Positions 2,770-41,032 of a stretch of 43,594 bases of DNA are shown piece by piece. Both the position numbers and the translations under genes were made by a program. The notes beneath the pieces are model-generated. The model was given only the letters and a program-made list of their open reading frames with translations, searched no databases and had not been told where the DNA came from. How positions within the stretch are numbered: position 1 is the first letter of the stretch; each line of letters begins with the position of its first letter. Source of the DNA: Kagunavirus PDP21P8; the sequence record OZ035783.1. One strand, given 5' to 3'.

Positions 2770-2800
2770 AAAGGCCCCATTACGGGGCCTTAGTTTTATT
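2770..2800. terminator. bidirectional rho-independent terminator
   Basis: hairpin AGGCCCC-loop-GGGGCCT flanked by A-run on the left and T-run on the right; sits between convergent genes. Confidence 0.6.
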
Positions 2801-3080
2801 TCTTTCCTAATGCTTTCTCGATTGCTCTGTTTGCCAGATTCAACGGATGGTCTTTATGGCAATCATCGGAAGATACTGCGCAAACATCCTCAACGTAATC
2901 GCGAAGCTGGCGAAGAGCTTCAAGTAACTCGGGTGCTGAGGAAATAAGTTTTGAGTTAGCCAATTTTACTGAGGCCTTCTCCTGCATACTCATTACCTCC
3001 GCCACATAAACGTCACCCGCCCATATAGCCGTTCCGCAATTAACCCATTCACCGTTCGTACCTTTAAATTTGTTAGCCAT
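2796..3080 (-). CDS. hypothetical protein (antisense moron in head module)
   Basis: 94 aa ORF on minus strand; strong SD AGGAGG 7 nt upstream of ATG; own promoter and terminator. Confidence 0.55.
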   Translation of the reverse strand: MANKFKGTNGEWVNCGTAIWAGDVYVAEVMSMQEKASVKLANSKLISSAPELLEALRQLRDYVEDVCAVSSDDCHKDHPLNLANRAIEKALGKK

Positions 3081-3104: not shown

Positions 3105-3136
3105 TGAATAGTACCCTATTATATTGGTGTCTGCAA
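3105..3136 (-). promoter_or_regulatory. early-type promoter with AATAG-N4-CTATT operator
   Basis: minus-strand reading TTGCAG-17 nt-TACTAT; inverted repeat GAATAG-tacc-CTATT overlaps -10; 23 bp identical to site at 14310-14332. Confidence 0.5.
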
Positions 3137-4711: not shown

Positions 4712-4774
4712 GCGCCTGCGATTATTCCAGTTATTCCACCAAATTGTAAATATTGGAATAAACTATTCGAATAG

Positions 4775-4803
4775 TTGACTTTTCACTAAAAATGTGCTAA
4801 GCT
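4775..4803 (+). promoter_or_regulatory. putative sigma70-like promoter
   Basis: TTGACT-17 nt-TAAGCT; overlaps the perfect palindrome AACTATTCGAATAGTT (4761-4776). Confidence 0.3.
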
Positions 4804-4809
4804 CCACCT

Positions 4810-5004
4810 GAGCTTGTGAAGTATGAACAAGCGACCGCGGCGCGGGCAGGTAACGGAGCGGGACGTAAGTCCTGAGTGTAGTTACGCTGACGCGTTCGGA
4901 AGGGCCATACTCTATTGCTTGTGTAAAAAGTAACTGGTTTACTGAGATTACGCCGTTTCTATGTTTAAATGATAAGGACTAGCGCCCCGCTTTATGGCGG
5001 GGCT
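4810..5004 (+). ncRNA. candidate short transcript (ncRNA or mRNA of a 36-aa peptide)
   Basis: ~200 nt between putative promoter 4775-4803 and terminator 4982-5010; only ORF is 36 codons (4823-4933) with a weak RBS. Confidence 0.2.
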
Positions 5005-12537: not shown

Positions 12538-12765
12538 CTAATCAATGTTACTCCTGTACTCCCGTAACTTTTCAAGACTTTCAATTGCTTCGTTAAGGTC
12601 CGTGTCTGCGTCCTTATGCCCTCTGCCACCCATGCATAACAGTTTCTTTAACGCGTGCTGTAACGCGGGGTCGTGGATAACGAAGGCCCTTAGCACATCA
12701 TAAACATCACATGTAATGGAATCGCCTGCGGTGTTGGTGAGTGTATGGTCATATTTTGAAGTCAT
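12538..12765 (-). CDS. small protein, DUF3310-like (tentative)
   Basis: 75 aa; pattern D-x-YDV...HALKKLL..GGRGHK..DL.EA resembles the DUF3310 phage family from memory; ATGA-coupled to upstream gene. Confidence 0.4.
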   Translation of the reverse strand: MTSKYDHTLTNTAGDSITCDVYDVLRAFVIHDPALQHALKKLLCMGGRGHKDADTDLNEAIESLEKLREYRSNID

Positions 12766-13892
12766 CCCAGCATCTCCGGTGAAATAGTTAAACGTGCGAC
12801 CTCGCCAAATTCGGCGCTATAAGTAATTACATTTGCACTACGGCCCGACATCCAACCTCCGCGGGAGGCGTAGGCGTCTTTAGCCGCTAAGGTGCGGTGT
12901 TGCTCAACAATCATGTTACGGCTTTCTACAATCTTCTGGTGGTGCAGATGGCCTACGTGGGCGTAGCTGTAAACACTCTCGCCGAACGCTTTACGGAACT
13001 TGGCAATCATAACAGGTTCAATAGCGTCGAATCGTGCTTTATGCCCGTGATGGAAGAACAGCGTCGTTTTGCCGTGTTGCACCATCTTGTAAACATCCGG
13101 TGACGTATCGACGAACACACGCGGCTCATTGTCATACAGCGTACTGAACATCTCAGCCAACCAAATCATGCCACTTTCGTCGTGATTCCCTTGCACGATA
13201 AGCAAGCGAACATTTTTATGCTTAACCAGCGCCATATCGACAACACGGCGGACCATGCGAATCATGTAGCGGACAAGTTTCTGGTAACGGGTGTCGGCGT
13301 CAAGGGCGTGACCGCTTGCAGGTGTAACGGCAACCAGACTATCGAAGTGCGCGAAGTCGCCCAGCAGGTTAATAACCCCAGTCCCCGCATCCGGTGCTTT
13401 CTGGAATGCCGCATCGAACCAACGGGAGAACAGGTCTTCTGCAATCTTCATATCCCAGTCGTCGCCACTCTCGTCGGCCCAGGCCAGCATACCGAGATGG
13501 AAATCAGACACAGTGTAAAGGTTGAGTAGCTTGTCGTCCCGTTTGGCGCGAACGGCTTTAACAGGAGCAACGGGGGTAATCTCCGACTTCATGCCCTCGA
13601 TTATGGCTTTCATCAACTCGACCTGACGTTCGGCATCGGTGTCGGTCTTAACCCATTGCAACTTAGTGTTGCCGAACTCATCAACCAGCGACGATGTGCC
13701 TTTAATCTTGTAGCCATCTGGTACAAGGTGGCTAACGTCACGCCCGTGGCCTACACCTTTCTTAGCCAGCTTCGCTTTACGGATACGAATAACTCGGTCT
13801 GAGATGCCGTATTTACGGGCGATGTCTACGTTCTTCATCCCGGCGTTCAATTCTTCCTGTAATTGTTCGTCGGTTATTTTCTTCCGGGCCAT
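12762..13892 (-). CDS. HTH-fused calcineurin-like metallophosphoesterase
   Basis: 376 aa; N-terminal HTH (DIARKYGISDRVIRIRKAK); motifs SDFH, LLGDFAHFD, QGNHDES, HHGH, GHLHH match the D-x-H / GD / GNH[DE] / GHxH metallophosphatase set; SD GAGGAAG. Confidence 0.7.
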   Translation of the reverse strand: MARKKITDEQLQEELNAGMKNVDIARKYGISDRVIRIRKAKLAKKGVGHGRDVSHLVPDGYKIKGTSSLVDEFGNTKLQWVKTDTDAERQVELMKAIIEGMKSEITPVAPVKAVRAKRDDKLLNLYTVSDFHLGMLAWADESGDDWDMKIAEDLFSRWFDAAFQKAPDAGTGVINLLGDFAHFDSLVAVTPASGHALDADTRYQKLVRYMIRMVRRVVDMALVKHKNVRLLIVQGNHDESGMIWLAEMFSTLYDNEPRVFVDTSPDVYKMVQHGKTTLFFHHGHKARFDAIEPVMIAKFRKAFGESVYSYAHVGHLHHQKIVESRNMIVEQHRTLAAKDAYASRGGWMSGRSANVITYSAEFGEVARLTISPEMLG

Positions 13893-13957: not shown

Positions 13958-14284
13958 CTATTTACTTTCTGCGCCTATTGCCCACCCAGTCATTACCATT
14001 TGCAGGCGGGTAGCGGTCAGTAGGCTGTAAAACGCGTCTCCGTTTTTCTCTACAGAACGTATTACCGTGTATGTTACGGCTTGCGGAGGCAGGCCCGATT
14101 TACCAACCTCTACGGCTGCCTCACACTCGCGAACGGTAGAGTCCTTAAATGCCTTTACAATAGTAGGGTCGGCTCTATCAAGCACACCAGAAGTCATAAG
14201 AACGGATTCACTAAACACCTGTTCACACGGAGACCCAAAAGTAGCAAAAGACATAAAACCAAGAGCTAACACTAATTTACGCAT
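13958..14284 (-). CDS. secreted protein (signal peptide, no lipobox)
   Basis: 108 aa; N-terminal MRKLVLALGFMSFATFG hydrophobic signal; two Cys; SD GAGGAA; first gene of antisense cassette. Confidence 0.5.
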   Translation of the reverse strand: MRKLVLALGFMSFATFGSPCEQVFSESVLMTSGVLDRADPTIVKAFKDSTVRECEAAVEVGKSGLPPQAVTYTVIRSVEKNGDAFYSLLTATRLQMVMTGWAIGAESK

Positions 14285-14309: not shown

Positions 14310-14341
14310 TGAATAGTACCCTATTATATTGGGGTGTGCAA
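14310..14341 (-). promoter_or_regulatory. early-type promoter with AATAG-N4-CTATT operator
   Basis: minus-strand reading TTGCAC-17 nt-TACTAT, nearly identical to promoter at 36243-36274; ends ~26 nt upstream of the ATG at 14284. Confidence 0.5.
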
Positions 14342-14448
14342 GTAGTGTGCTAGAATAAGTTTGCGCCTAGTGTCGCACACGAAAAGCGGGTGGTTCCCGT
14401 CTGGCGCGTCAACCTTAACCTGTAACCTCTTAACCAAAGGACTAAAGA

Positions 14449-14865
14449 ATGAAACTTTCTGATTTTTATTTTGCTGACCGCCATGCTGTAGGCACTAAAA
14501 TGCCTATCCTTCTGCCGAGTGGTAAAGACTCCGGTGAATGGTTGCAGGTCATTGGCCCAGATTGTGATGCTGGCGTTCGTGCGGGCCGCGCCTACACAAC
14601 GGCAATTCGACGCCTTACGGAAGAACTTGCGCCGTTAGATAAAGAGTGTGAGGCACTGAATAATTGGGCACGCTACAACGATGAGAAGGGTTGGCGGGTG
14701 ATGGACCTGAACAAGCAGCTTGCCGTGGAAATTGTCACCGGTTGGTCATTCGACGAACCGTTCAGCAAAGAGGCTCTGGCTAACCTGTTTGACCAATACA
14801 GTGGGCTGGCGGAGGCCGTAGTTAAGCATCACACCGACAGTCGCGAGAAACTCTCGGAAAAGTAA
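14449..14865 (+). CDS. tail assembly chaperone
   Basis: 138 aa ORF immediately upstream of the tape measure gene; followed by overlapping -1 frame ORF. Confidence 0.5.
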   Translation: MKLSDFYFADRHAVGTKMPILLPSGKDSGEWLQVIGPDCDAGVRAGRAYTTAIRRLTEELAPLDKECEALNNWARYNDEKGWRVMDLNKQLAVEIVTGWSFDEPFSKEALANLFDQYSGLAEAVVKHHTDSREKLSEK

Positions 14866-15227
14866 AAGCGCTGTATGAATTTGCGCAATGGTGCTTTGTC
14901 GACCGCCACAAACGTAAGCAATTCGACGACATAGCGGCAGGCCACCAGGCGGCTTTGATTGCAATGGGCGTGATTAAAGAACCGCAGATGAAAGAAGCGA
15001 CGGGGCCTGAATGCCCCGTTTCTCTTATCGACGTGTTCGAGAAATACCGTGCCATTAAATTCCTACAGCGCGAAACAGATGATACTATCGTTATAATCCC
15101 GCGCGATGCGCTCAAATGGCAAGATTTGGTAGCGTTTCGTGATGTCGCCGGTTACGGCATAAGTTTGTTCGAAGCCGAGGTTATCATGGGCTTAGACGGA
15201 ATATTTGAGGGCAGAGAAGATGGCTGA
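14826..15227 (+). CDS. tail assembly chaperone -1 frameshift extension
   Basis: -1 frame is open from 14826 (40 nt overlap with upstream ORF) with no ATG until 14964; candidate slip site G GAA AAG at 14856-14862. Confidence 0.4.
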   Translation, partial: ASHRQSRETLGKVKALYEFAQWCFVDRHKRKQFDDIAAGHQAALIAMGVIKEPQMKEATGPECPVSLIDVFEKYRAIKFLQRETDDTIVIIPRDALKWQDLVAFRDVAGYGISLFEAEVIMGLDGIFEGREDG

Positions 15228-17529
15228 TACGGCTTCCCTAATTGCCAGAGTAAAAACAGAAGGCGCTGATGTAGCCGCTAAACAGCTTGACGCTATGGCG
15301 GCATCCGCAGACCGTGCGGACACATCCGTAAACAAACTAACGCCGGATGTTAATAAAGTAAACTCCGCTACGTCTAAAGCGGCTTCTGACGGTTTCGCTA
15401 AATTCCGTAACGCCGCCGGGCAGGTAGGCTTCCAGGTGCAGGACATGGTCGTCCAGTTGCAGTCCGGCACGTCTGCATTCGTAGCAATCGGGCAACAAGG
15501 CTCTCAGCTTGCGGGTGCTTTCGGCCCTGGTGGCGCGGTGCTTGGGGCCGTAATTGCTCTTGCGTCAGCAATCGGTGGTGTCCTGTATAAATCGTTAACC
15601 GAAGCAGAAGGCAGTTCAAAAGACCTCGAAGCCGCACAGAAACAGCTAAAAGATACTTTCCAGCAAACGGCGTCCGGCTCTCTCGAACTGACAGACGGCC
15701 TTATCCAGCTTACCCAAATCAGCAGAGAAGCGGCGGAGACTCAGCTTGCTTTGGCTAAGGCTAACGCTGACCTTATCGCGCAGCAAACAGCTAAAGCCGT
15801 TCGTGAGGATGCAGAATCATGGGAGACATGGAAAGCATCCACGGCATCGGCTATCAGCCAGTATGACGCGCTGGTCTCTAAGGGCGCGGATGTAGGCGAC
15901 ACGTTAGAAAAACTAGGCGGCACTTACGAGGGTAATATCGTCGGCGTCAACATGCTGGCACAGAATATCGCAGAGCTTAGCAGTAAGTTTGGGGTTAACC
16001 GTGACCAGGCGCTGGAGATGATAGCGGCGCAGAGTGCGTTTAACAAAGAGCCAACCGCCGAGAATGCCCGTCGCATCGCCGATGTGTTTACCGACTGGCT
16101 CGGTAATACAAAACAGTTGAACCCGGAACTTATCCGCCTGACCGACAATGCCAACAAGAACGCCACGGCACTGGAGAACGCGGAGAAGTCCGCAAACGCG
16201 GCGGCGGAGGCCCAAAAGAATCTTGGTCGTAACGTCAACTCAACAACGCAGAGATTCCAGGAACAGAACGAAGCTATCGTCAAAAACCAGCAAATCGCTA
16301 TCTTAAGTGACCGCGAGCGTATCCGTGCGCAAGCTGAACTGGATAAGCAGGCGTTCGCTAAACGTGAAGCTGTCACCAAAGAACAGATCGCCGCGTATAA
16401 TGCTGCGCGTGACACGGAAGCACAACAAGACATCGCTCGCATCGACGCTACCGAAAAAGCGAAGGCCGACCGCGAGGCCAAATCGAACGAGAAACGGCTG
16501 GCGGCACAAGCCAAACGCGAAGAAACGGCGGCTGAACGACAGAAAAAAGCGGCGGAAGATTTCCTGGCTACTGTCGACCGCACAACCGGAGATGAGATTT
16601 CGCGCATTACCGCTGCGGAAGAGCAGAAACTGGCAAAACTGGAAGAGTTTAACAGAGCTGGGACTATAAGCCAGCAGCAATACGAAAACGCCAGGACGCA
16701 GATTATGCTCTCGGCCGAACAGGCCCGCCAGGAAGAACTCGCCAAGCGAGAGAAAGAACGACAGGAGAAGAACCAGAAAGGCGAAGACTTCATGGCTCAG
16801 ATTATGGGCCAAAACGCCGCTGAGCTTGAGCTTCTGGAGATTCAGGAGCAACAAAAACTGGACGTTGCTGACAGGTATCGCGAACAGAATCTGATTAACG
16901 AAGAACAGTACCAGGCCGCGGTTAATGCTATAAATGACCAGTACGCGTTAAAACGTGCTAACGCAACGGGTAACGCTTTTGGCATGATGGCGGATAATAT
17001 TAAATCGTCGCTTGGCGAAGCGTCTACTGCGTACAAAGCTTTCGCTATTGCGCAGGCCACTATTGCCACATACACCTCCGCTATAGAGGCTTATAAATCT
17101 GCATCGGCTATCCCTATTGTTGGATGGGTGCTCGGGCCTGTAGCCGCCGCCGCCGCCGTAGCCGCGGGGCTCGCAAACATTGGCAAAATTCGTTCGGCCC
17201 GTGAGCAGGGCGGTAACTTAGCTGCAGGTCAGTTATCTACTATCGCGGAACGTAACAAGCCAGAAGTTATTATGCCTGCAGGGGCGTCACGCGTCCGTAC
17301 CGCAGAACAGATGCGCCAGATTATGGGCGAGAACGGCAACAAGTCAGGCGGTGACAGCGTTACAATCGTCAACAACACCACCGGACGTGTTGATTCCGCC
17401 GTTACAGAGCGTGACGACGAAGGGCGGTTACGTGTTATCATCAGCGAAACAGTATCGGCGGCGTTACAAGACAGCAACAGTGCAATCTCTAAGTCACGCC
17501 GTGCTACACGAAACCAGCCGGGGTATTAA
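15220..17529 (+). CDS. tape measure protein
   Basis: ~770 aa, Ala/Gln/Glu/Lys-rich coiled-coil repeats, Gly-rich hydrophobic segment near C-terminus; ATG 15220. Confidence 0.8.
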   Translation: MADTASLIARVKTEGADVAAKQLDAMAASADRADTSVNKLTPDVNKVNSATSKAASDGFAKFRNAAGQVGFQVQDMVVQLQSGTSAFVAIGQQGSQLAGAFGPGGAVLGAVIALASAIGGVLYKSLTEAEGSSKDLEAAQKQLKDTFQQTASGSLELTDGLIQLTQISREAAETQLALAKANADLIAQQTAKAVREDAESWETWKASTASAISQYDALVSKGADVGDTLEKLGGTYEGNIVGVNMLAQNIAELSSKFGVNRDQALEMIAAQSAFNKEPTAENARRIADVFTDWLGNTKQLNPELIRLTDNANKNATALENAEKSANAAAEAQKNLGRNVNSTTQRFQEQNEAIVKNQQIAILSDRERIRAQAELDKQAFAKREAVTKEQIAAYNAARDTEAQQDIARIDATEKAKADREAKSNEKRLAAQAKREETAAERQKKAAEDFLATVDRTTGDEISRITAAEEQKLAKLEEFNRAGTISQQQYENARTQIMLSAEQARQEELAKREKERQEKNQKGEDFMAQIMGQNAAELELLEIQEQQKLDVADRYREQNLINEEQYQAAVNAINDQYALKRANATGNAFGMMADNIKSSLGEASTAYKAFAIAQATIATYTSAIEAYKSASAIPIVGWVLGPVAAAAAVAAGLANIGKIRSAREQGGNLAAGQLSTIAERNKPEVIMPAGASRVRTAEQMRQIMGENGNKSGGDSVTIVNNTTGRVDSAVTERDDEGRLRVIISETVSAALQDSNSAISKSRRATRNQPGY

Positions 17530-26285: not shown

Positions 26286-26540
26286 TTAGTTAGATAATTC
26301 GGCTTGAACTTGCTTAATAAGTTCTCCAGCCGTTGTGAAGTCTACGGACAGCCGTTTAGCTACGTCTTCCGCAAGCACTTTGCGGCCAACCGACCCGAAA
26401 CCCAGGATACGGTTTACTTCCGAAACCTTCATATACCATGAGTAATTAACTGATGCCCCTGTGTACTTACAGATTCGAACAGATGAATCGATTGAACCCA
26501 TAATCATGGTGTTTACTGACAGTTGAAGTTCGATAGCCAT
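26286..26540 (-). CDS. hypothetical protein
   Basis: 84 aa; SD AAGGAA; own promoter at 26575-26603. Confidence 0.45.
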   Translation of the reverse strand: MAIELQLSVNTMIMGSIDSSVRICKYTGASVNYSWYMKVSEVNRILGFGSVGRKVLAEDVAKRLSVDFTTAGELIKQVQAELSN

Positions 26541-26541
26541 T

Positions 26542-26871
26542 TTATAATTCCTTATATTGTTGGGGTATGTGCTTACTATAATAGTCTGCTATTAGGGTGT
26601 CAATCTGTTTTATCGAACCAACGACAAAAACATTCGCGCCACGTTTACGCATCCGCTCGTGCTCGCGTAACTGGTGTGGGTCTGGCTTCGTGCTTTCATC
26701 TTTCTTAACCTCAACGAACCAGATGATGCCGCCGGGGAGGATTACCAACAGGTCGGGCGCTCCGTTTCGGCCCTCATACACTATCTTACGAACGAGGCCC
26801 CCCAGGGCCTCGAATCGGTCTTTCGCGTATTTCTGTACGCGGCCCTCTTTAGTCATGGGCGTAGAACCCAA
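26542..26871 (-). CDS. VRR-NUC domain nuclease
   Basis: GAPDLLVIL...WFVEVKKDE matches PD-(D/E)xK core of VRR-NUC proteins. Confidence 0.65.
   Translation of the reverse strand: MGSTPMTKEGRVQKYAKDRFEALGGLVRKIVYEGRNGAPDLLVILPGGIIWFVEVKKDESTKPDPHQLREHERMRKRGANVFVVGSIKQIDTLIADYYSKHIPQQYKEL
26575..26603 (-). promoter_or_regulatory. sigma70-like promoter with operator in spacer
   Basis: minus-strand TTGACA-17 nt-TATAGT; spacer carries AATAG-tctg-CTATT; overlaps 3' end of VRR-NUC gene. Confidence 0.45.
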
Positions 26872-27208: not shown

Positions 27209-29482
27209 TTACTTAGCATAACGGTACACCTCTCCCCCAGCCCATGTTAACGGGAACCCTTCGGCCCACTCAGGTAATGAGCATAGCAGGTCACCCATCT
27301 CTTTAACCGTGTACTCTGGCGTGTCTGGCGTTTCGGCAACACATTCGTCATGTACGTGGAGTACAATTGGGTAGCCCGCCGCCTCGACCGTCAGGAGTCC
27401 GTTAACCAGTAAATCACGGCACAACGCCTGGATGATGTTTTCACACAATTTTCCGCCGTGGGTGTACAAAGTTGTCCACTGGCGGGTGGTCTGATTTTCA
27501 CCCTGATACTTAATGCGGACGTTAGTAGTAACGCGCCCATCCTCGTCAGTCTCTTTAGTGACGCTTAAGCCTATGCCAGGGTAGGACATGATGCGCCCAG
27601 ACGGCAGTTCCACGCACAACCACCAACCCGGAACCGGATTACCGTGGTTGTCTTTTTCTTTGGTACGCCAGATGCGGATGGCTCTGTCGCCGTTAAGGCG
27701 TACTCGGGCCCCCGCCCAAAACTCTCGTCCCGGATTTCTGATGGCGGCTATCACCGAATCCTTAAGGTCATTCCAGAATTTCACTGTTTCCGGATGGGCT
27801 TCCCGCCACATGCGCTTAATGGCGTCACAGGTGCGCCAGACTTCTTTAGGCAGCACATAAGAGGCCCGTTCATCTTTTTTACCAGGCTTTGGCGGGCGTT
27901 TAGCCTCCTGAATTCTGGCCCATTCGTAGCCACGGGCGGTAGCCGCCCAAATGTGGTCGGGGAACGTGCCCCGCATTGTCTCTGTCATTTTAAAGAGGTC
28001 CAGCCCGTAAGTTTTAGCCATAGTCATAAAAGCCCCTACGCCCCCCTCGTAGCCGAGGCCGAGTTCGCAACATTTCCCGACCTGACGTAGGTCCTTACGG
28101 GTGGCTTTTAGTTCTACGGGGTCCATGCCAAACATCTTGCCCGCGGTGGCGCAATAAATATCAATCCCTGCGCGGAAGGTCTCAAGCGCGGATGTCTCCC
28201 CCGCGGTCCAGGCCAACCCGCGCCCTTCTACGTTTGAGTAGTCGGCAACGAGCAACTTATTACCCTTTTCAGGGATGATGCAACTGCGAACAGTCGAGGC
28301 TGTCAGCTTGGATACGTCGAAACGACGGTGCGCCCGACCCTTTAGCAGCAGATTGATGCCGAACGATAGGGGGTTGAGACGACGGTTCCAGTCTTCGTCG
28401 GACTCCCACGGCTGGCGTACAAGTTTCTTCTCCTCGTTAGTCGGGTCATCATGATAGTACCCGCGCGACAGGTTCTGCGGCTGGAACCCTTTACCCGCAA
28501 ATCGTAAAGTGCGCTTTGCCCCACCGTACTGGATGCAACCGCGGCGGCGGCCGTCTTTGGACCGTCCTAGCAGGAGCGGTTTGTATTTTGTCGACGCCGT
28601 GGAGGCCGCGCCGAGGCGCATCTCAATGATTGTGCGCGCATCGTCAGGTAAGTCGTCGTCCTCTAGCAAACCTTCGAGCGTTGCTTTCTGCGCATTATAG
28701 ATATTGTAGGCCGGTGCCAGCTCCCGAAGGATTGGCAGGAAGTCTTTACCCGTTAGCTTCCCGCCAAATTTAGCCCTGGCCTCGTTTTTTAGCTCTTGCT
28801 TGTGGCGTTCAACTGCTGCTACCGCCGCCTCAGCAAGAGCCGCATCAACAAAGAAGCCTCGGTCGTTGATTAACTGGTCAAGTTCAAGTACACGGTCCTC
28901 GAAATCGGAGTTACCCCAACGTGGCAGCTTATGGAAGACTTCACGCATCGCTGTGATGTCGCTCACGGCGTACTTGATGAACAGCGCCCATTCGTCCGGG
29001 TGCGTTTCGGCGGTGTAGCGGCGGATTTTATAGTTCTTCGGGGTTGGTTTGGAGAAACGCTGAATCAGAGCCTTGCCACGTTTATCTTTCGCGTTGTCGG
29101 CGGATACGCCCAGCACTTCGCATAATGCGTCAAGTGAACCCGGCAGCGCGTGGCGAAACGCCCAAATCATAGTGTCAATGGTGTTGCTGACCGGAATATC
29201 GAAGCCCCAGCAGTTCTTCATGATGAGCCTATCGAAAAGTCCACCGTTATGCCACACCATCTTAATGCGACTGTTTGGCTTCACCAGACGGCGTAACGCG
29301 CGGTGTAAATCTCCCGGCATGTCGCTGCCGTCAGTGCAGTCCCATACCTGAACAGGCTCGTCATCAAAAGCATAGGTGCAGATGAGCACTTCGGTAGTCG
29401 GGTGTTCGGCGTAAGCATAGGAGCCGACTTTCTTCAAATCGGCTTCGGAGAAGGTTTCAAAGTCTAAGAACAGATAACTCAT
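27209..29482 (-). CDS. DNA polymerase, family A, with 3'-5' exonuclease domain
   Basis: FLDFETFS exo motif; pol motif A VADYSNVE, motif B RQVGKCCELGLGYEGG, motif C LHVHDE. Confidence 0.85.
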   Translation of the reverse strand: MSYLFLDFETFSEADLKKVGSYAYAEHPTTEVLICTYAFDDEPVQVWDCTDGSDMPGDLHRALRRLVKPNSRIKMVWHNGGLFDRLIMKNCWGFDIPVSNTIDTMIWAFRHALPGSLDALCEVLGVSADNAKDKRGKALIQRFSKPTPKNYKIRRYTAETHPDEWALFIKYAVSDITAMREVFHKLPRWGNSDFEDRVLELDQLINDRGFFVDAALAEAAVAAVERHKQELKNEARAKFGGKLTGKDFLPILRELAPAYNIYNAQKATLEGLLEDDDLPDDARTIIEMRLGAASTASTKYKPLLLGRSKDGRRRGCIQYGGAKRTLRFAGKGFQPQNLSRGYYHDDPTNEEKKLVRQPWESDEDWNRRLNPLSFGINLLLKGRAHRRFDVSKLTASTVRSCIIPEKGNKLLVADYSNVEGRGLAWTAGETSALETFRAGIDIYCATAGKMFGMDPVELKATRKDLRQVGKCCELGLGYEGGVGAFMTMAKTYGLDLFKMTETMRGTFPDHIWAATARGYEWARIQEAKRPPKPGKKDERASYVLPKEVWRTCDAIKRMWREAHPETVKFWNDLKDSVIAAIRNPGREFWAGARVRLNGDRAIRIWRTKEKDNHGNPVPGWWLCVELPSGRIMSYPGIGLSVTKETDEDGRVTTNVRIKYQGENQTTRQWTTLYTHGGKLCENIIQALCRDLLVNGLLTVEAAGYPIVLHVHDECVAETPDTPEYTVKEMGDLLCSLPEWAEGFPLTWAGGEVYRYAK

Positions 29483-29540: not shown

Positions 29541-30173
29541 TTAACCACGGCGACGACGTTCGCGGCGCGGTGCTTCATCTTCTTCGTCGTCTTCCAGGTC
29601 GTCGGTGCTCGCTACTACACTGGAGCCGCCGAAGCGTTTACCTTCGCCCATATACTTGATGCCGAGGATGGTAGCGCACAGGTTTTTCCAATCTTTGTGC
29701 CACCATAATTCTACAGATACGTTTGCGATACATCCGCTATATACCTGCTCGCCTTCTATTTCTTTCCCGTCGATGTTGAAATCAGGCTCGGTTTGTTTTT
29801 CACCTTTAGCCGATGTCATAATCACCGGTTGGCGGTTGTTTGTAGCGCGGAAATACAGACCTTCTTCAAAATCCTCAATCGGATTATCTCGCATTGCCAG
29901 GTCACGGACGCAGCATTTGTCTGCGTGGTGGTCTACACCGTAGTTGGCCTTCATCCATTTCTCGGCAGCAGCGGCCCCGATTGCATCTGTTACAACTTCC
30001 AACGCGGTGTCGTAAAGCGCATCAATTTGAGGATGGTCAGGCTGCATAAGAACAGTAACCTGATACTTACCCTTAATCAGTTTACCGGTTTTCTTGTCCT
30101 CAGAGTCGGCGGCACGTTCAAATACGTTAACCCAGGCAGTGTTTACTTTACGCAGATTCAGTTTAATACCCAT
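29541..30173 (-). CDS. ssDNA-binding protein, DUF2815-like (putative)
   Basis: 210 aa, acidic stretch DDLEDDEEDE then basic tail; position between DUF2800 nuclease and polymerase. Confidence 0.45.
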   Translation of the reverse strand: MGIKLNLRKVNTAWVNVFERAADSEDKKTGKLIKGKYQVTVLMQPDHPQIDALYDTALEVVTDAIGAAAAEKWMKANYGVDHHADKCCVRDLAMRDNPIEDFEEGLYFRATNNRQPVIMTSAKGEKQTEPDFNIDGKEIEGEQVYSGCIANVSVELWWHKDWKNLCATILGIKYMGEGKRFGGSSVVASTDDLEDDEEDEAPRRERRRRG

Positions 30174-30226: not shown

Positions 30227-30255
30227 AATATAATAGCTAACTATTCAGGTGTCAA
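30227..30255 (-). promoter_or_regulatory. sigma70-like promoter with operator in spacer
   Basis: minus-strand TTGACA-17 nt-TATATT; spacer contains TGAATAG-ttag-CTATTAT. Confidence 0.5.
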
Positions 30256-32199: not shown

Positions 32200-32733
32200 T
32201 TATTCTTCTTCGAAGTACTTGTTCTTGATTGCCGTCAGGCGTTCCAGGTATTCAGCCAGGTCTTCGTCTTTAATCGCGGCAATCTTCATTTTCTTACCGG
32301 TGAACTCTTCCAGCAGTTCATCGGAAGCATCGCACGCGGCATCGCTCGGACCTTCGTTAATTGCGTCGTCGATAGCCTGAATCTGGTCACGCAGAGACTG
32401 GTAATCGACTTCTTCTTTCTCTTCTTCCGGCTCTGGCGTCGGCTCCTCTACTTTAGCTTTACGTGGCTTACGTTTAGGCTTCTCTTCTTCTTCTTCTGGT
32501 TTAGTGTCAACGACGTCTTCACCTTCTACCGGGATTTCTTTTTTAATGCTGGATTTTTGTAATTCTAATGTATGTTCGAGTTCAAGTTTCTCTTTAGCCA
32601 CCTCGTGCTTGGCAATGGCGATATTTAGTTTTGTGTCCAGTTCTTTCGATGATGCTTGTTTCACGCTATTCGCAGCAATCAGTTCATGCGCAACTACGAA
32701 ACGTTCCAGTAATACTAAGAATTTCTCTAACAT
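32200..32733 (-). CDS. acidic coiled-coil protein
   Basis: 177 aa, Glu/Lys-rich; SD AGGAG; first gene downstream of promoter 32765-32793. Confidence 0.5.
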   Translation of the reverse strand: MLEKFLVLLERFVVAHELIAANSVKQASSKELDTKLNIAIAKHEVAKEKLELEHTLELQKSSIKKEIPVEGEDVVDTKPEEEEEKPKRKPRKAKVEEPTPEPEEEKEEVDYQSLRDQIQAIDDAINEGPSDAACDASDELLEEFTGKKMKIAAIKDEDLAEYLERLTAIKNKYFEEE

Positions 32734-32764: not shown

Positions 32765-32793
32765 ACTATAATAGCGAACTATTCACTTGTCAA
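32765..32793 (-). promoter_or_regulatory. sigma70-like promoter with operator in spacer
   Basis: minus-strand TTGACA-17 nt-TATAGT; spacer contains AATAG-cgaa-CTATT; forward face carries TATAAT toward the XRE gene. Confidence 0.45.
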
Positions 32794-32813
32794 TGGGCTT
32801 TTCTAAAATAATT

Positions 32814-32830
32814 AATATGGTACTATTCAC
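32814..32830 (+). promoter_or_regulatory. second operator-like site upstream of XRE gene
   Basis: AATATGGTACTATTCAC, degenerate copy of the AATAG-N4-CTATT element, ~30 nt upstream of ATG 32858. Confidence 0.35.
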
Positions 32831-32857: not shown

Positions 32858-33073
32858 ATGCAACCATCCGAACTAGGCATCCGTGTAGAACAACGCCGTA
32901 AAGAACTAGGCATCTCCCAGCGCCGTCTTGCGGTCCTGGCCGGCGTTTCCCAGGGCGCGATTAACCAGCTTGCGCTCGGGGTAACTCAGGACGTCCGCCC
33001 GGCGACGCTGTTTAAACTGGCGGAAGTGCTGCAAGTAGACGCTAAGTGGCTGGCGTTCGGTGAAGGGGCTTAA
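32858..33073 (+). CDS. XRE-family HTH transcriptional regulator (Cro/CI-like)
   Basis: 71 aa; LGISQRRLAVLAGVSQGAINQL helix-turn-helix; SD AAGGAG. Confidence 0.75.
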   Translation: MQPSELGIRVEQRRKELGISQRRLAVLAGVSQGAINQLALGVTQDVRPATLFKLAEVLQVDAKWLAFGEGA

Positions 33074-35407: not shown

Positions 35408-35641
35408 TTATTCCAGGTCTTCTAAAGTAGCGGTCATTCCGCGAACTTCAGCAACAGCACTATATTTCCCGCCAACATTCTTCACGACACCGGATTTAAC
35501 CAGTACCTTCAACGACCCTTCAATAATGGCGGAACTATAGTACCTAAAATAACTACGGCGCAAGTCCATAACGCTGCACGACCCTTTTTTACGGGTTAAT
35601 GAAACGACTGCCGTAAATACGCGGGACTGGAACTCGGTCAT
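35408..35641 (-). CDS. hypothetical protein
   Basis: 77 aa; C-terminus TLEDLE similar to the EEDLE tails of primase and DUF2800 nuclease. Confidence 0.45.
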   Translation of the reverse strand: MTEFQSRVFTAVVSLTRKKGSCSVMDLRRSYFRYYSSAIIEGSLKVLVKSGVVKNVGGKYSAVAEVRGMTATLEDLE

Positions 35642-35808
35642 TTTACATTCTCCTTAATCCACGCTTCCACTTTCTCCGGGTCGAAAGTACCCGGCTGCCG
35701 GCGGCCCATAATACGGATGCAACAATCCGGGAACTTCCCACTCTTTAACCAGTTATTCAGCGTGCGACGGGTAACCCCGATACGCTCGGCTACTTCATTC
35801 TGTGTCAT
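35638..35808 (-). CDS. AlpA/excisionase-like HTH DNA-binding protein
   Basis: MTQNEVAERIGVTRRTLNNWLKSGKFP helix-turn-helix; ATG 35808 with G-rich SD; first gene of leftward early operon. Confidence 0.55.
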   Translation of the reverse strand: MTQNEVAERIGVTRRTLNNWLKSGKFPDCCIRIMGRRQPGTFDPEKVEAWIKENVK

Positions 35809-36242: not shown

Positions 36243-36274
36243 TTGCACACCCCAACATAATAGGATACTATTCA
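36243..36274 (+). promoter_or_regulatory. early-type promoter with AATAG-N4-CTATT operator
   Basis: TTGCAC-17 nt-TACTAT with AATAG-gata-CTATT overlapping -10; ~30 nt upstream of ATG 36306. Confidence 0.5.
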
Positions 36275-36305: not shown

Positions 36306-36500
36306 ATGTTTAAACGTGGTCAGTTGGCTAAAACGAAGCGAGGCGAACAGTACGTAATAGTGTTGCAGGACGAGAACGAGTATGACGAGGATAAGCTGGT
36401 TGACGTATGGGGTCTGGTAAGAAAGAAACCCGGGTTCGCCTTACGCGATAATCTGAAACTCATCGGCAACAATTTTAAATTCAAAGGGGATAACACGTGA
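36306..36500 (+). CDS. hypothetical early protein
   Basis: SD AGAGGAG 9 nt upstream of ATG 36306. Confidence 0.5.
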   Translation: MFKRGQLAKTKRGEQYVIVLQDENEYDEDKLVDVWGLVRKKPGFALRDNLKLIGNNFKFKGDNT

Positions 36501-37376: not shown

Positions 37377-37409
37377 TGTTCAATAGTTTGAGATTTTACT
37401 GAGTGACTT

Positions 37410-37448
37410 ACGCTGCTGAGTAGCAGCGTATCATTTTTCTCATTTTTG
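37410..37448 (+). terminator. rho-independent terminator
   Basis: ACGCTGCT-gagt-AGCAGCGT perfect hairpin followed by T-rich run. Confidence 0.55.
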
Positions 37449-37500
37449 TTCTATTTCACGAAACGCAACAATAGAAGCGACTATTGCGGGAGATGCAACA

Positions 37501-37678: not shown

Positions 37679-37710
37679 TTGTACACTGGGATAGAATAGG
37701 CTACTATTCA
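37679..37710 (+). promoter_or_regulatory. early-type promoter with AATAG-N4-CTATT operator
   Basis: TTGTAC-17 nt-TACTAT with GAATAG-gcta-CTATT; 28 nt upstream of ATG 37739. Confidence 0.45.
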
Positions 37711-37738: not shown

Positions 37739-37876
37739 ATGGGCGGGTACGGTAGCTGGGCATTAGGTGAACTGGTAGACGCTTACGAAATAATGGGTAG
37801 CACTTCGGTATGCGACGGTGACACTAAATCGCTGCTAGTCGGGGTCGATGAGAAAAGGGGTGAAGACGATGAATAA
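37739..37876 (+). CDS. small hypothetical protein
   Basis: 45 aa, SD GAGAGGAGAG. Confidence 0.3.
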   Translation: MGGYGSWALGELVDAYEIMGSTSVCDGDTKSLLVGVDEKRGEDDE

Positions 37877-40881: not shown

Positions 40882-40910
40882 TTGACACCTAAGACTAATC
40901 CGACGATACT
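40882..40910 (+). promoter_or_regulatory. putative sigma70-like promoter
   Basis: TTGACA-17 nt-GATACT. Confidence 0.3.
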
Positions 40911-40916
40911 TAAATC

Positions 40917-40981
40917 ACCTCCTGTTCCATCCCTCTGCTCTCCAGTTTTATCCCGGCCCTGACCCAGCCGGGATTTTTTTT
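40917..40981 (+). ncRNA. candidate ~65-nt small RNA
   Basis: no ORF; pyrimidine-rich CACCUCCUGUUCCAUCCCUCUGCUCUCC then strong terminator hairpin. Confidence 0.2.
40950..40981 (+). terminator. rho-independent terminator
   Basis: ATCCCGGC-9 nt loop-GCCGGGAT followed by eight T. Confidence 0.7.
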
Positions 40982-41003
40982 ATCTGTTTTCCACAATGAC
41001 TAG

Positions 41004-41032
41004 TTGACTATTATCTACGACCCTATTATATC
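41004..41032 (+). promoter_or_regulatory. putative sigma70-like promoter
   Basis: TTGACT-17 nt-TATATC with two CTATTAT elements; upstream of small-gene block. Confidence 0.4.

Follow-up and report, generated by a model that had tools for sequence, protein, structure and literature searches.

The DNA analysed here (the window; 43,594 nucleotides) is the complete or near-complete 43.6-kb genome of a siphophage in the Guernseyvirinae subfamily, Kagunavirus-like in kind. A query of 8 kb over the element described below matched 450 phage records, nearly all of them Escherichia or Salmonella phages, and the best match was Escherichia phage Henuyfy11N at 96% identity. The annotated relatives are virulent, and they carry structural, lysis and small early genes on one strand and replication genes on the opposite strand. 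Their annotations contain no CI, S24 peptidase or integrase and no RNA polymerase; all large ORFs of the window are accounted for in terms of gene content, and a Pfam search of these revealed no RNA polymerase domain. Pfam and PHROGs scans of about 30 small ORFs identified two DNA-binding proteins and no further candidate, ribbon-helix-helix proteins included:

32858-33073, plus strand: XRE/HTH_3 protein of 71 aa (Pfam HTH_3, E=1.2e-12), the favoured candidate for the regulator discussed below.
35638-35808, minus strand: HTH_17 (AlpA/excisionase-like) protein of 56 aa, the rival candidate, whose own promoter (35869-35841) has no putative operator.

The first-pass annotation had pointed out a recurring inverted repeat, and a motif scan bears this out: the 14-base sequence AATAG-N4-CTATT has seven exact matches in the window (starting at 3107, 14312, 26580, 30232, 32770, 36259 and 37695), against 0.08 +/- 0.27 expected from 100 dinucleotide shuffles. 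When up to one mismatch is allowed there are 11 matches, including that at 32814, compared with 0.95 expected from dinucleotide shuffles. When inverted repeats of every 5-mer are counted at gaps of 0-11, AATAG with a gap of 4 is the commonest in the window. We also trained a symmetric PWM on the eight sites that had been listed, all of whose coordinates proved correct within 2-3 nt, and scanned it across the window. The scores are bimodal: the eight training sites lie between 20.8 and 25.8, two untrained positions score 16.8 (40999) and 15.6 (4770), and the next best position reaches 7.9, the mean shuffle maximum being 11.4. The near-match at 40999-41012, which is conserved, was absent from the original list. 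The sites, with their predicted promoters, are as follows:

36259-36272, plus strand: putative operator AATAGGATACTATT, its 3' arm overlapping the -10 TACTAT (36266-36271), which lies 17 nt from TTGCAC (36243-36248); the promoter is predicted to drive the rightward small early genes (ATG at 36306).
37695-37708, plus strand: putative operator AATAGGCTACTATT; TTGTAC 37679-37684, 17 nt, TACTAT 37702-37707; ATG at 37739 downstream.
3107-3120, minus strand: putative operator reading AATAGGGTACTATT on that strand; TTGCAG 3136-3131, 17 nt, TACTAT 3113-3108; predicted to drive a 94-aa gene (2796-3080, phrog_1273) antisense within the head-gene block.
14312-14325, minus strand: putative operator identical to that at 3107; TTGCAC 14341-14336, 17 nt, TACTAT 14318-14313; predicted to drive 13958-14284, 12762-13892 and 12538-12765, antisense within the tail-gene block.
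26580-26593, minus strand: putative operator wholly in the spacer; TTGACA 26603-26598, 17 nt, TATAGT 26580-26575; predicted to drive 26286-26540 and the downstream helicase genes (SNF2 helicase operon).
30232-30245, minus strand: putative operator in the spacer; TTGACA 30255-30250, 17 nt, TATATT 30232-30227; predicted to drive the ssDNA-binding gene (29541-30173) and the DNA polymerase gene (27209-29482).
32770-32783, minus strand: putative operator in the spacer; TTGACA 32793-32788, 17 nt, TATAGT 32770-32765; predicted to drive a 177-aa gene (32200-32733) and the nuclease gene (PD-(D/E)XK).
32814-32827, plus strand: one-mismatch putative operator AATATGGTACTATT, overlapping TACTAT 32821-32826 of the XRE gene's own promoter.
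40999-41012, plus strand: weaker near-operator ACTAGTTGACTATT (AATAGTTGACTAGT in Jerseyvirus), centred on the -35 of TTGACT 41004-41009, 17 nt, TATATC 41027-41032; upstream of ATG 41066.

Two variants that had been included with these sites are unconvincing. The position at 4770, despite its PWM score, is shared with no relative of the window but the closest; lacking wider conservation, it is rejected as a true member, a chance match being the probable explanation. The other, at 37451-37485, has a 6-nt centre (AATAG-N6-CTATT at 37467-37482, preceded by CTATT at 37451); it follows a terminator (37409-37430) and has no recognisable promoter. The closest relative contains three copies of AATAG-N6-CTATT.

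All eight or nine sites lie inside sigma-70-type promoter cores, with hexamers predicted from the sequence, and they do so in three registers: over the -10, inside the spacer and over the -35. In the -10 register, TTGCAC, TTGTAC or TTGCAG is followed by 10 nt and then AATAGGnTACTATT, with the 3' arm overlapping TACTAT and a 17-nt spacer. The XRE promoter (the 32814 site) has this layout apart from its weak -35, CTTTTC (32798-32803). In the spacer register, TTGACA, 4 nt, AATAG-N4-CTATT and ATAGT follow one another, the whole dyad is contained in the 17-nt spacer, and the -10 (TATAGT or TATATT) begins at the dyad's last T; the three promoters of this type (26603-26575, 30255-30227 and 32793-32765, all minus strand) are the window's best sigma-70 matches, at 11/12. 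The two promoter classes originally proposed, one with TACTAT overlap and one with a TTGACA spacer, are thus upheld when the geometry is re-read, their 17-nt spacers included, and the sequences at 3105-3127 and 14310-14332 are indeed identical over 23 of 23 positions. One correction is that 3107 and 14312 belong to minus-strand promoters. Taken together, the units under motif-bearing promoters comprise the XRE gene, the early genes read rightward, two antisense cassettes and three operons for replication/recombination; the HTH_17 and helicase-primase genes are predicted to be driven by TTGATT-17-TATACT at 35869-35841, the sole clear early promoter that lacks the element.

The -10-overlap promoters at 3105-3136, 14310-14341 and 36243-36274 share a near-identical block of ~32 nt (TTGCACACCCCAAyATAATAGGnTACTATTCA), the spacer ACCCCAA included, which suggests either promoter duplication when the antisense cassettes were gained or an additional constraint on the spacer. 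Two other predicted promoters in the window are each followed by a terminator. Within 40882-40983, TTGACA-17-GATACT forms a strong sigma-70-like promoter (10/12), and about 45 nt beyond it comes an intrinsic terminator with the stem CCCGGC...GCCGGG and a T8 run (RNA fold -13.8 kcal/mol, z=-1.9). Directly downstream of this unit are the next promoter and then the packaging and late genes. The 3' stem arm and T-run of this terminator, which fall in the aligned segment of the 40999 site, are conserved in Kagunavirus and Jerseyvirus, the promoter lying outside that segment; the unit could produce a short RNA or could be a lambda PR'-tR'-like unit under antitermination. At 4774-5003, a conserved promoter, TTGACT-17-TAAGCT, precedes a leader of about 180 nt that ends in a strong terminator (4984-5003) just before the ATG (5028) of a 128-aa ORF, whose position corresponds to that annotated as o-spanin in PVP-SE2 and as spanin in PhiSTP1. 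This leader, conserved across relatives in its first part, matches nothing in Rfam; it may be regulatory.

To follow the element across related phages, we retrieved orthologous promoters by BLAST of 134-nt segments, so that they were not selected by motif, from 41 IMG/VR loci around the helicase-primase gene and several whole genomes (about 40 related phages, yielding 25-43 unique sequences per site). Across these, the arms have an entropy of 0.00-0.07 bit, compared with 0.4-1.0 bit for the four central bases, 0.3-0.6 bit for the downstream flank and 0.6-0.76 bit for the 4-nt linker beside the -35 in the spacer-type promoters; at the 36259 site, the values are 0.02 bit for the arms and 0.68 for the centre. 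The 32814 site is nearly invariant in 28 unique orthologues, and conservation of the 40999 site extends to both Kagunavirus and Jerseyvirus, whose mismatches fall in opposite arms. In the orthologue alignments, the arms vary no more than the -35 and -10 hexamers do. Sigma-70 makes no base-specific demand on the spacer bases between -35 and -10, and invariant arms located there therefore point to the footprint of a second DNA-binding factor. The promoter and putative operator at 26575-26603 lie inside the 3' end of an ORF (26542-26871, annotated as VRR-NUC in a relative), and the invariant arms of this site are thus maintained within coding sequence. A role in RNA or DNA structure was considered and rejected, given arms of 5 bp and a dyad upstream of the predicted starts; an Rfam scan of the window returned no match, and an RNA-level role is excluded because all sites are upstream of the predicted starts.

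In Jerseyvirus, whose members are Salmonella phages, the same AATAG/CTATT core is present at orthologous promoters. The base 5' of AATAG is T in all 20 unique Jerseyvirus sites, compared with G in 51 of 70 Kagunavirus sites, and the Jerseyvirus flanks yield a perfect TAATAG-N4-CTATTA. The Jerseyvirus sites adjoining the XRE gene are degenerate (AATCG..CTATT and ATTAC..CTATT). In the Cornellvirus genomes scanned there is no copy of AATAG-N4-CTATT; the orthologous promoters instead carry ATTAG-N4-GTATT, in both orientations relative to the promoter, with three exact copies per genome against 0-0.05 expected, and with 2, 2, 1 and 0 copies in four Cornellvirus-type loci from IMG/VR. This motif is self-complementary at only 3/5 positions and hence is not a perfect palindrome. 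All sites change together among phages that share host polymerase and regulators, which argues that the factor is phage-encoded; more specifically, Jerseyvirus and Cornellvirus both infect Salmonella and yet their motifs differ, which points to a change in a phage-encoded factor. On these grounds we think it likely that the element is the site of a phage-encoded factor.

Of the two DNA-binding proteins, XRE has the more informative relatives. In a phmmer search of the PDB it matches 434 Cro with E=4.9e-7 over residues 6-68, both proteins being 71 aa long, and its closest solved homologues are 434 Cro, 434 repressor and P22 c2, which bind 14-18-bp dyads with variable centres. The gene is found in all three Guernseyvirinae genera, with identities of about 52% between Kagunavirus and Jerseyvirus and about 40% for Cornellvirus. 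There is one copy per genome (508 places in 502 records). In a lambdoid Klebsiella phage, a homologue with 45% identity is annotated as cro; it is located between CI and cII and has 14-bp ACAA-N6-TTGT operators in the flanking intergenic region. In the window, two of the sites, 32770 and 32814, lie 44 bp apart in the 125-bp divergent region adjoining the XRE gene, one of them over XRE's own -10. The predicted recognition helices are SQGAINQ in the window, SQSLITH in Jerseyvirus and TQSAISH in Cornellvirus; those of Jerseyvirus and Cornellvirus are closer to each other than to that of the window, yet it is Jerseyvirus that shares the window's motif. Prophages and other phages were searched for the same helix, as material for a test of protein-operator covariation, but the yield was uninformative: in IMG/VR, nothing beyond additional loci of Kagunavirus, Jerseyvirus and Cornellvirus and some unrelated phages of high GC; in a word-seeded protein search, relatives of 77-99% identity alone; and in GTDB, unrelated XREs plus one Jerseyvirus contaminant contig. 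An 18,987-bp contig of a Taishania pollutisoli assembly (NZ_JACVEL010000022.1) encodes an XRE identical to that of Jerseyvirus and has AATAG-N4-CTATT sites; it is most likely phage contamination of that assembly.

The first-pass annotation had named both XRE and the AlpA-like protein as candidates, and the evidence separates them mainly through Cornellvirus: XRE, a 434-Cro homologue of 71 aa, is present in all three genera, whereas the AlpA-like protein is missing from Cornellvirus by both tblastn (E>0.2) and Pfam, and it is chiefly for this reason that XRE is favoured. That HTH_17 is the binder, made from a motif-free early promoter and acting on all motif-bearing promoters, nevertheless has several points to commend it. 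Its promoter lacks the element, as would be expected at the top of a cascade; its 86-88% identity between Kagunavirus and Jerseyvirus and its invariant helix-turn-helix match the AATAG/CTATT core common to both genera; and an RNA-seq time course of Kagunavirus K1B4 placed an HTH gene among the four earliest transcripts (PMC12645636), a gene that we infer from gene order to be HTH_17. Against this, Cornellvirus retains a related promoter-embedded element without the protein, the genus-specific change in the flank occurs without any change in the HTH_17 recognition helix, and a search of solved structures gave no significant homologue for HTH_17. The small HTH_17/Xis-like proteins, moreover, generally occupy direct repeats in monomeric or filamentous form, and not 14-bp dyads. 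We therefore consider HTH_17 an unlikely binder. The genomic setting of the two genes also differs among genera: in Kagunavirus and Jerseyvirus, HTH_17 heads the helicase-primase operon and XRE is a separate gene convergent with it; in Cornellvirus (14353-17001 of locus L047 and 4385-7275 of L049), XRE heads that operon on the same strand and HTH_17 is missing.

It is also conceivable that there is no dedicated regulator, and that the dyad consists of back-to-back -10-like sequences that aid polymerase or divergent transcription, with the likeness among sites due to duplication. Each arm does resemble part of a -10, with TATAAT/TACTAT on one strand and TATTAT/TATAGT on the other; most sites have TATAAT ahead of AATAG, and CTATT-ATAGT forms a dyad in its own right. 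The near-identical ~32-nt block of the -10-overlap promoters, and the identity of 3105-3127 with 14310-14332, fit duplication as well. However, the arms of the spacer-type sites fall at about -31 to -12, where the opposite strand has no usable -35, and within these spacers the linker and centre are free to vary. Since the centres differ among paralogues within one genome, more than recent duplication must lie behind the invariant arms. The motifs of Jerseyvirus and Cornellvirus also differ despite the same host polymerase. An origin purely in the promoter sequence itself is therefore unlikely.

The possibility that the phage exploits a transcription factor of its host (Enterobacteriaceae) appears fainter still. 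The core is common to phages of E. coli and Salmonella, as this would require, and the 40999 site, ACTAGTTGACTATT in the window and AATAGTTGACTAGT in Jerseyvirus, resembles the core of the E. coli trp operator, ACTAGTTAACTAGT, at 12/14 positions; this likeness is probably a coincidence, though it falls on the -35 of a late-region promoter. We know of no host regulator with an AATAG-N4-CTATT consensus. Moreover, Cornellvirus and Jerseyvirus both grow on Salmonella with differing motifs, and a suitable Cro-type protein is encoded by the phage itself, beside two of the sites. All this makes a host factor very improbable.

The recurrence of the repeat is already in the published record, under a wrong label. 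In the fBC-Eco01 paper, the seven 'Phage RNAP promoters' (PP1-PP7) that PHIRE analysis picked out are 20-mers of this element, TGAATAGTACCCTATTATAT among them, with the consensus tgAATAGTa-ccTATTat-T (PMC9825357), and PHIRE was also used in the Golestan paper, which reports seven promoters without naming the polymerase or printing the sequences in the main text (PMC7203180). These are the same element, at the same relative genome positions as in the window, and both papers are silent on dyad symmetry, sigma-70 embedding and a candidate repressor. That the element serves as promoter of a phage-encoded RNA polymerase has virtually no chance of being correct, and is ruled out by gene content: the window and its annotated relatives encode no RNA polymerase, and each element lies within a canonical sigma-70 -35/-10 pair and does not stand alone, which is why we regard the label given in fBC-Eco01 as wrong. 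Literature searches on this regulator and on transcription starts in Guernseyvirinae turned up genome reports and one RNA-seq time course without start sites, and we found no paper that proposes or tests an operator role for the element.

An operator role is the best-supported reading of the repeat. With moderate confidence, we favour the view that the element is the operator of a dimeric, phage-encoded HTH repressor, most likely the 71-aa, 434-Cro-like XRE. The analysis itself demonstrates the enrichment, the placement in promoter cores, the arm-selective conservation, the joint change of sites between lineages and the homology of XRE to 434 Cro; from these we infer XRE as the binder, a dimer as its binding form and repression as the outcome. 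The first-pass annotation had already suggested the operator of a dimeric phage regulator in early and moron promoters, and much of this stands: all the comparative tests made here agree with it, among them the invariant arms and the joint change of the sites in Cornellvirus. Two of its variant sites are unconvincing, and the imperfect symmetry of the Cornellvirus motif sits less easily with a dimer.

The following sequence of events can be envisaged. On phage entry, host sigma-70 RNA polymerase would fire the strong, near-consensus promoters that bear the motif, and XRE protein would build up as early transcription proceeds. An XRE dimer would then bind the two 5-bp arms, 9 bp apart from centre to centre, within the 14-bp site. 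Bound XRE would exclude polymerase from promoters in which the site lies between the -35 and -10, across the -10 or, in one case, across the -35; such occlusion is to be expected because each putative operator falls within the footprint of polymerase. Early and middle/replication transcription would thereby be turned down, together with XRE's own synthesis, a Cro-like job in a phage without CI. Activation seems unlikely as the effect of binding, since the promoters are near consensus with optimal 17-nt spacers and no site is at an activator position.

Several points count against XRE in this role. The partial self-complementarity of the Cornellvirus motif is odd for a homodimer, and the similarity among recognition helices does not track that among motifs neatly. 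ATAG/CTAT resembles a -10-like sequence, and some of the conservation could be intrinsic to the promoter. Finally, the Jerseyvirus sites by the XRE gene are degenerate, and the motif-free HTH_17 promoter would fit a cascade led by HTH_17.

Among known systems, the closest likeness is to 434 Cro and cI. XRE, at 71 aa, consists of one HTH_3 domain and matches 434 Cro significantly in sequence; the 14-bp dyad, an operator by prediction in the window, has conserved outer bases and a variable, presumably uncontacted centre; and the putative operators overlap the core promoter, with two of them beside the regulator gene in a divergent promoter region. The differences are equally clear. The 434 operators, ACAA-N6-TTGT (OR1-3 and OL1-3), have 4-bp arms and are clustered in two triplets, whereas the window's AATAG arms are 5 bp and its sites are scattered over eight or nine promoters; and the window phage is virulent, with no lysogeny module, cI partner or bistable lysis/lysogeny switch. 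The role proposed here resembles that of lambda and P22 Cro, small early proteins that repress the early promoters (PR and PL) and themselves, although the fold class of lambda Cro differs from that of 434 Cro and the window's regulon would add replication operons and antisense cassettes in structural genes. The P22 Arc/Mnt operators within Pant are comparable too, in that a strong phage promoter has a dyad between its -35 and -10 or over them and is repressed by occlusion, but Arc and Mnt are ribbon-helix-helix proteins, of which none was detected in the window. A dyad in the promoter spacer also recalls MerR-type regulation, and HTH_17 is distantly MerR-like; MerR-type promoters, however, have 19-20-bp spacers that need distortion, while the window's spacers are an optimal 17 nt and its hexamers near consensus. 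Functionally, the system is thus most likely of the 434/lambda-Cro repressor-operator kind, an ordinary type of genetic switch, here in a little-studied phage subfamily of practical importance.

A more far-reaching proposal is one that we put forward tentatively and at present lean somewhat against: that the whole early and middle programme of the strictly virulent Guernseyvirinae may be run by one orphan Cro without cI, through three registers at ~9 promoters that include the antisense cassettes. The protein and its operator would have co-evolved to at least two specificities (AATAG/CTATT and ATTAG/GTATT), and promoters would be shut off in an order that depends on how good their operators are, these being perfect, one-mismatch or -35-centred.

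Isolation of phages for therapy and biocontrol widely yields Kagunavirus and Jerseyvirus, Kagunavirus is now represented in the BASEL model collection, and genome papers mislabel the element as a phage-polymerase promoter. The value of the present analysis is an annotation fix and an experimental lead, and no new mechanism is revealed. If the operator interpretation is true, it would provide a corrected annotation for hundreds of deposited genomes and a compact regulon map of eight or nine promoters and one 71-aa protein. It would also provide phage engineering with a set of strong sigma-70 promoters that can be repressed by a small protein matched to them and, for these phages, a natural pair of diverged operator specificities with which to follow the co-evolution of a Cro-type protein and its site.
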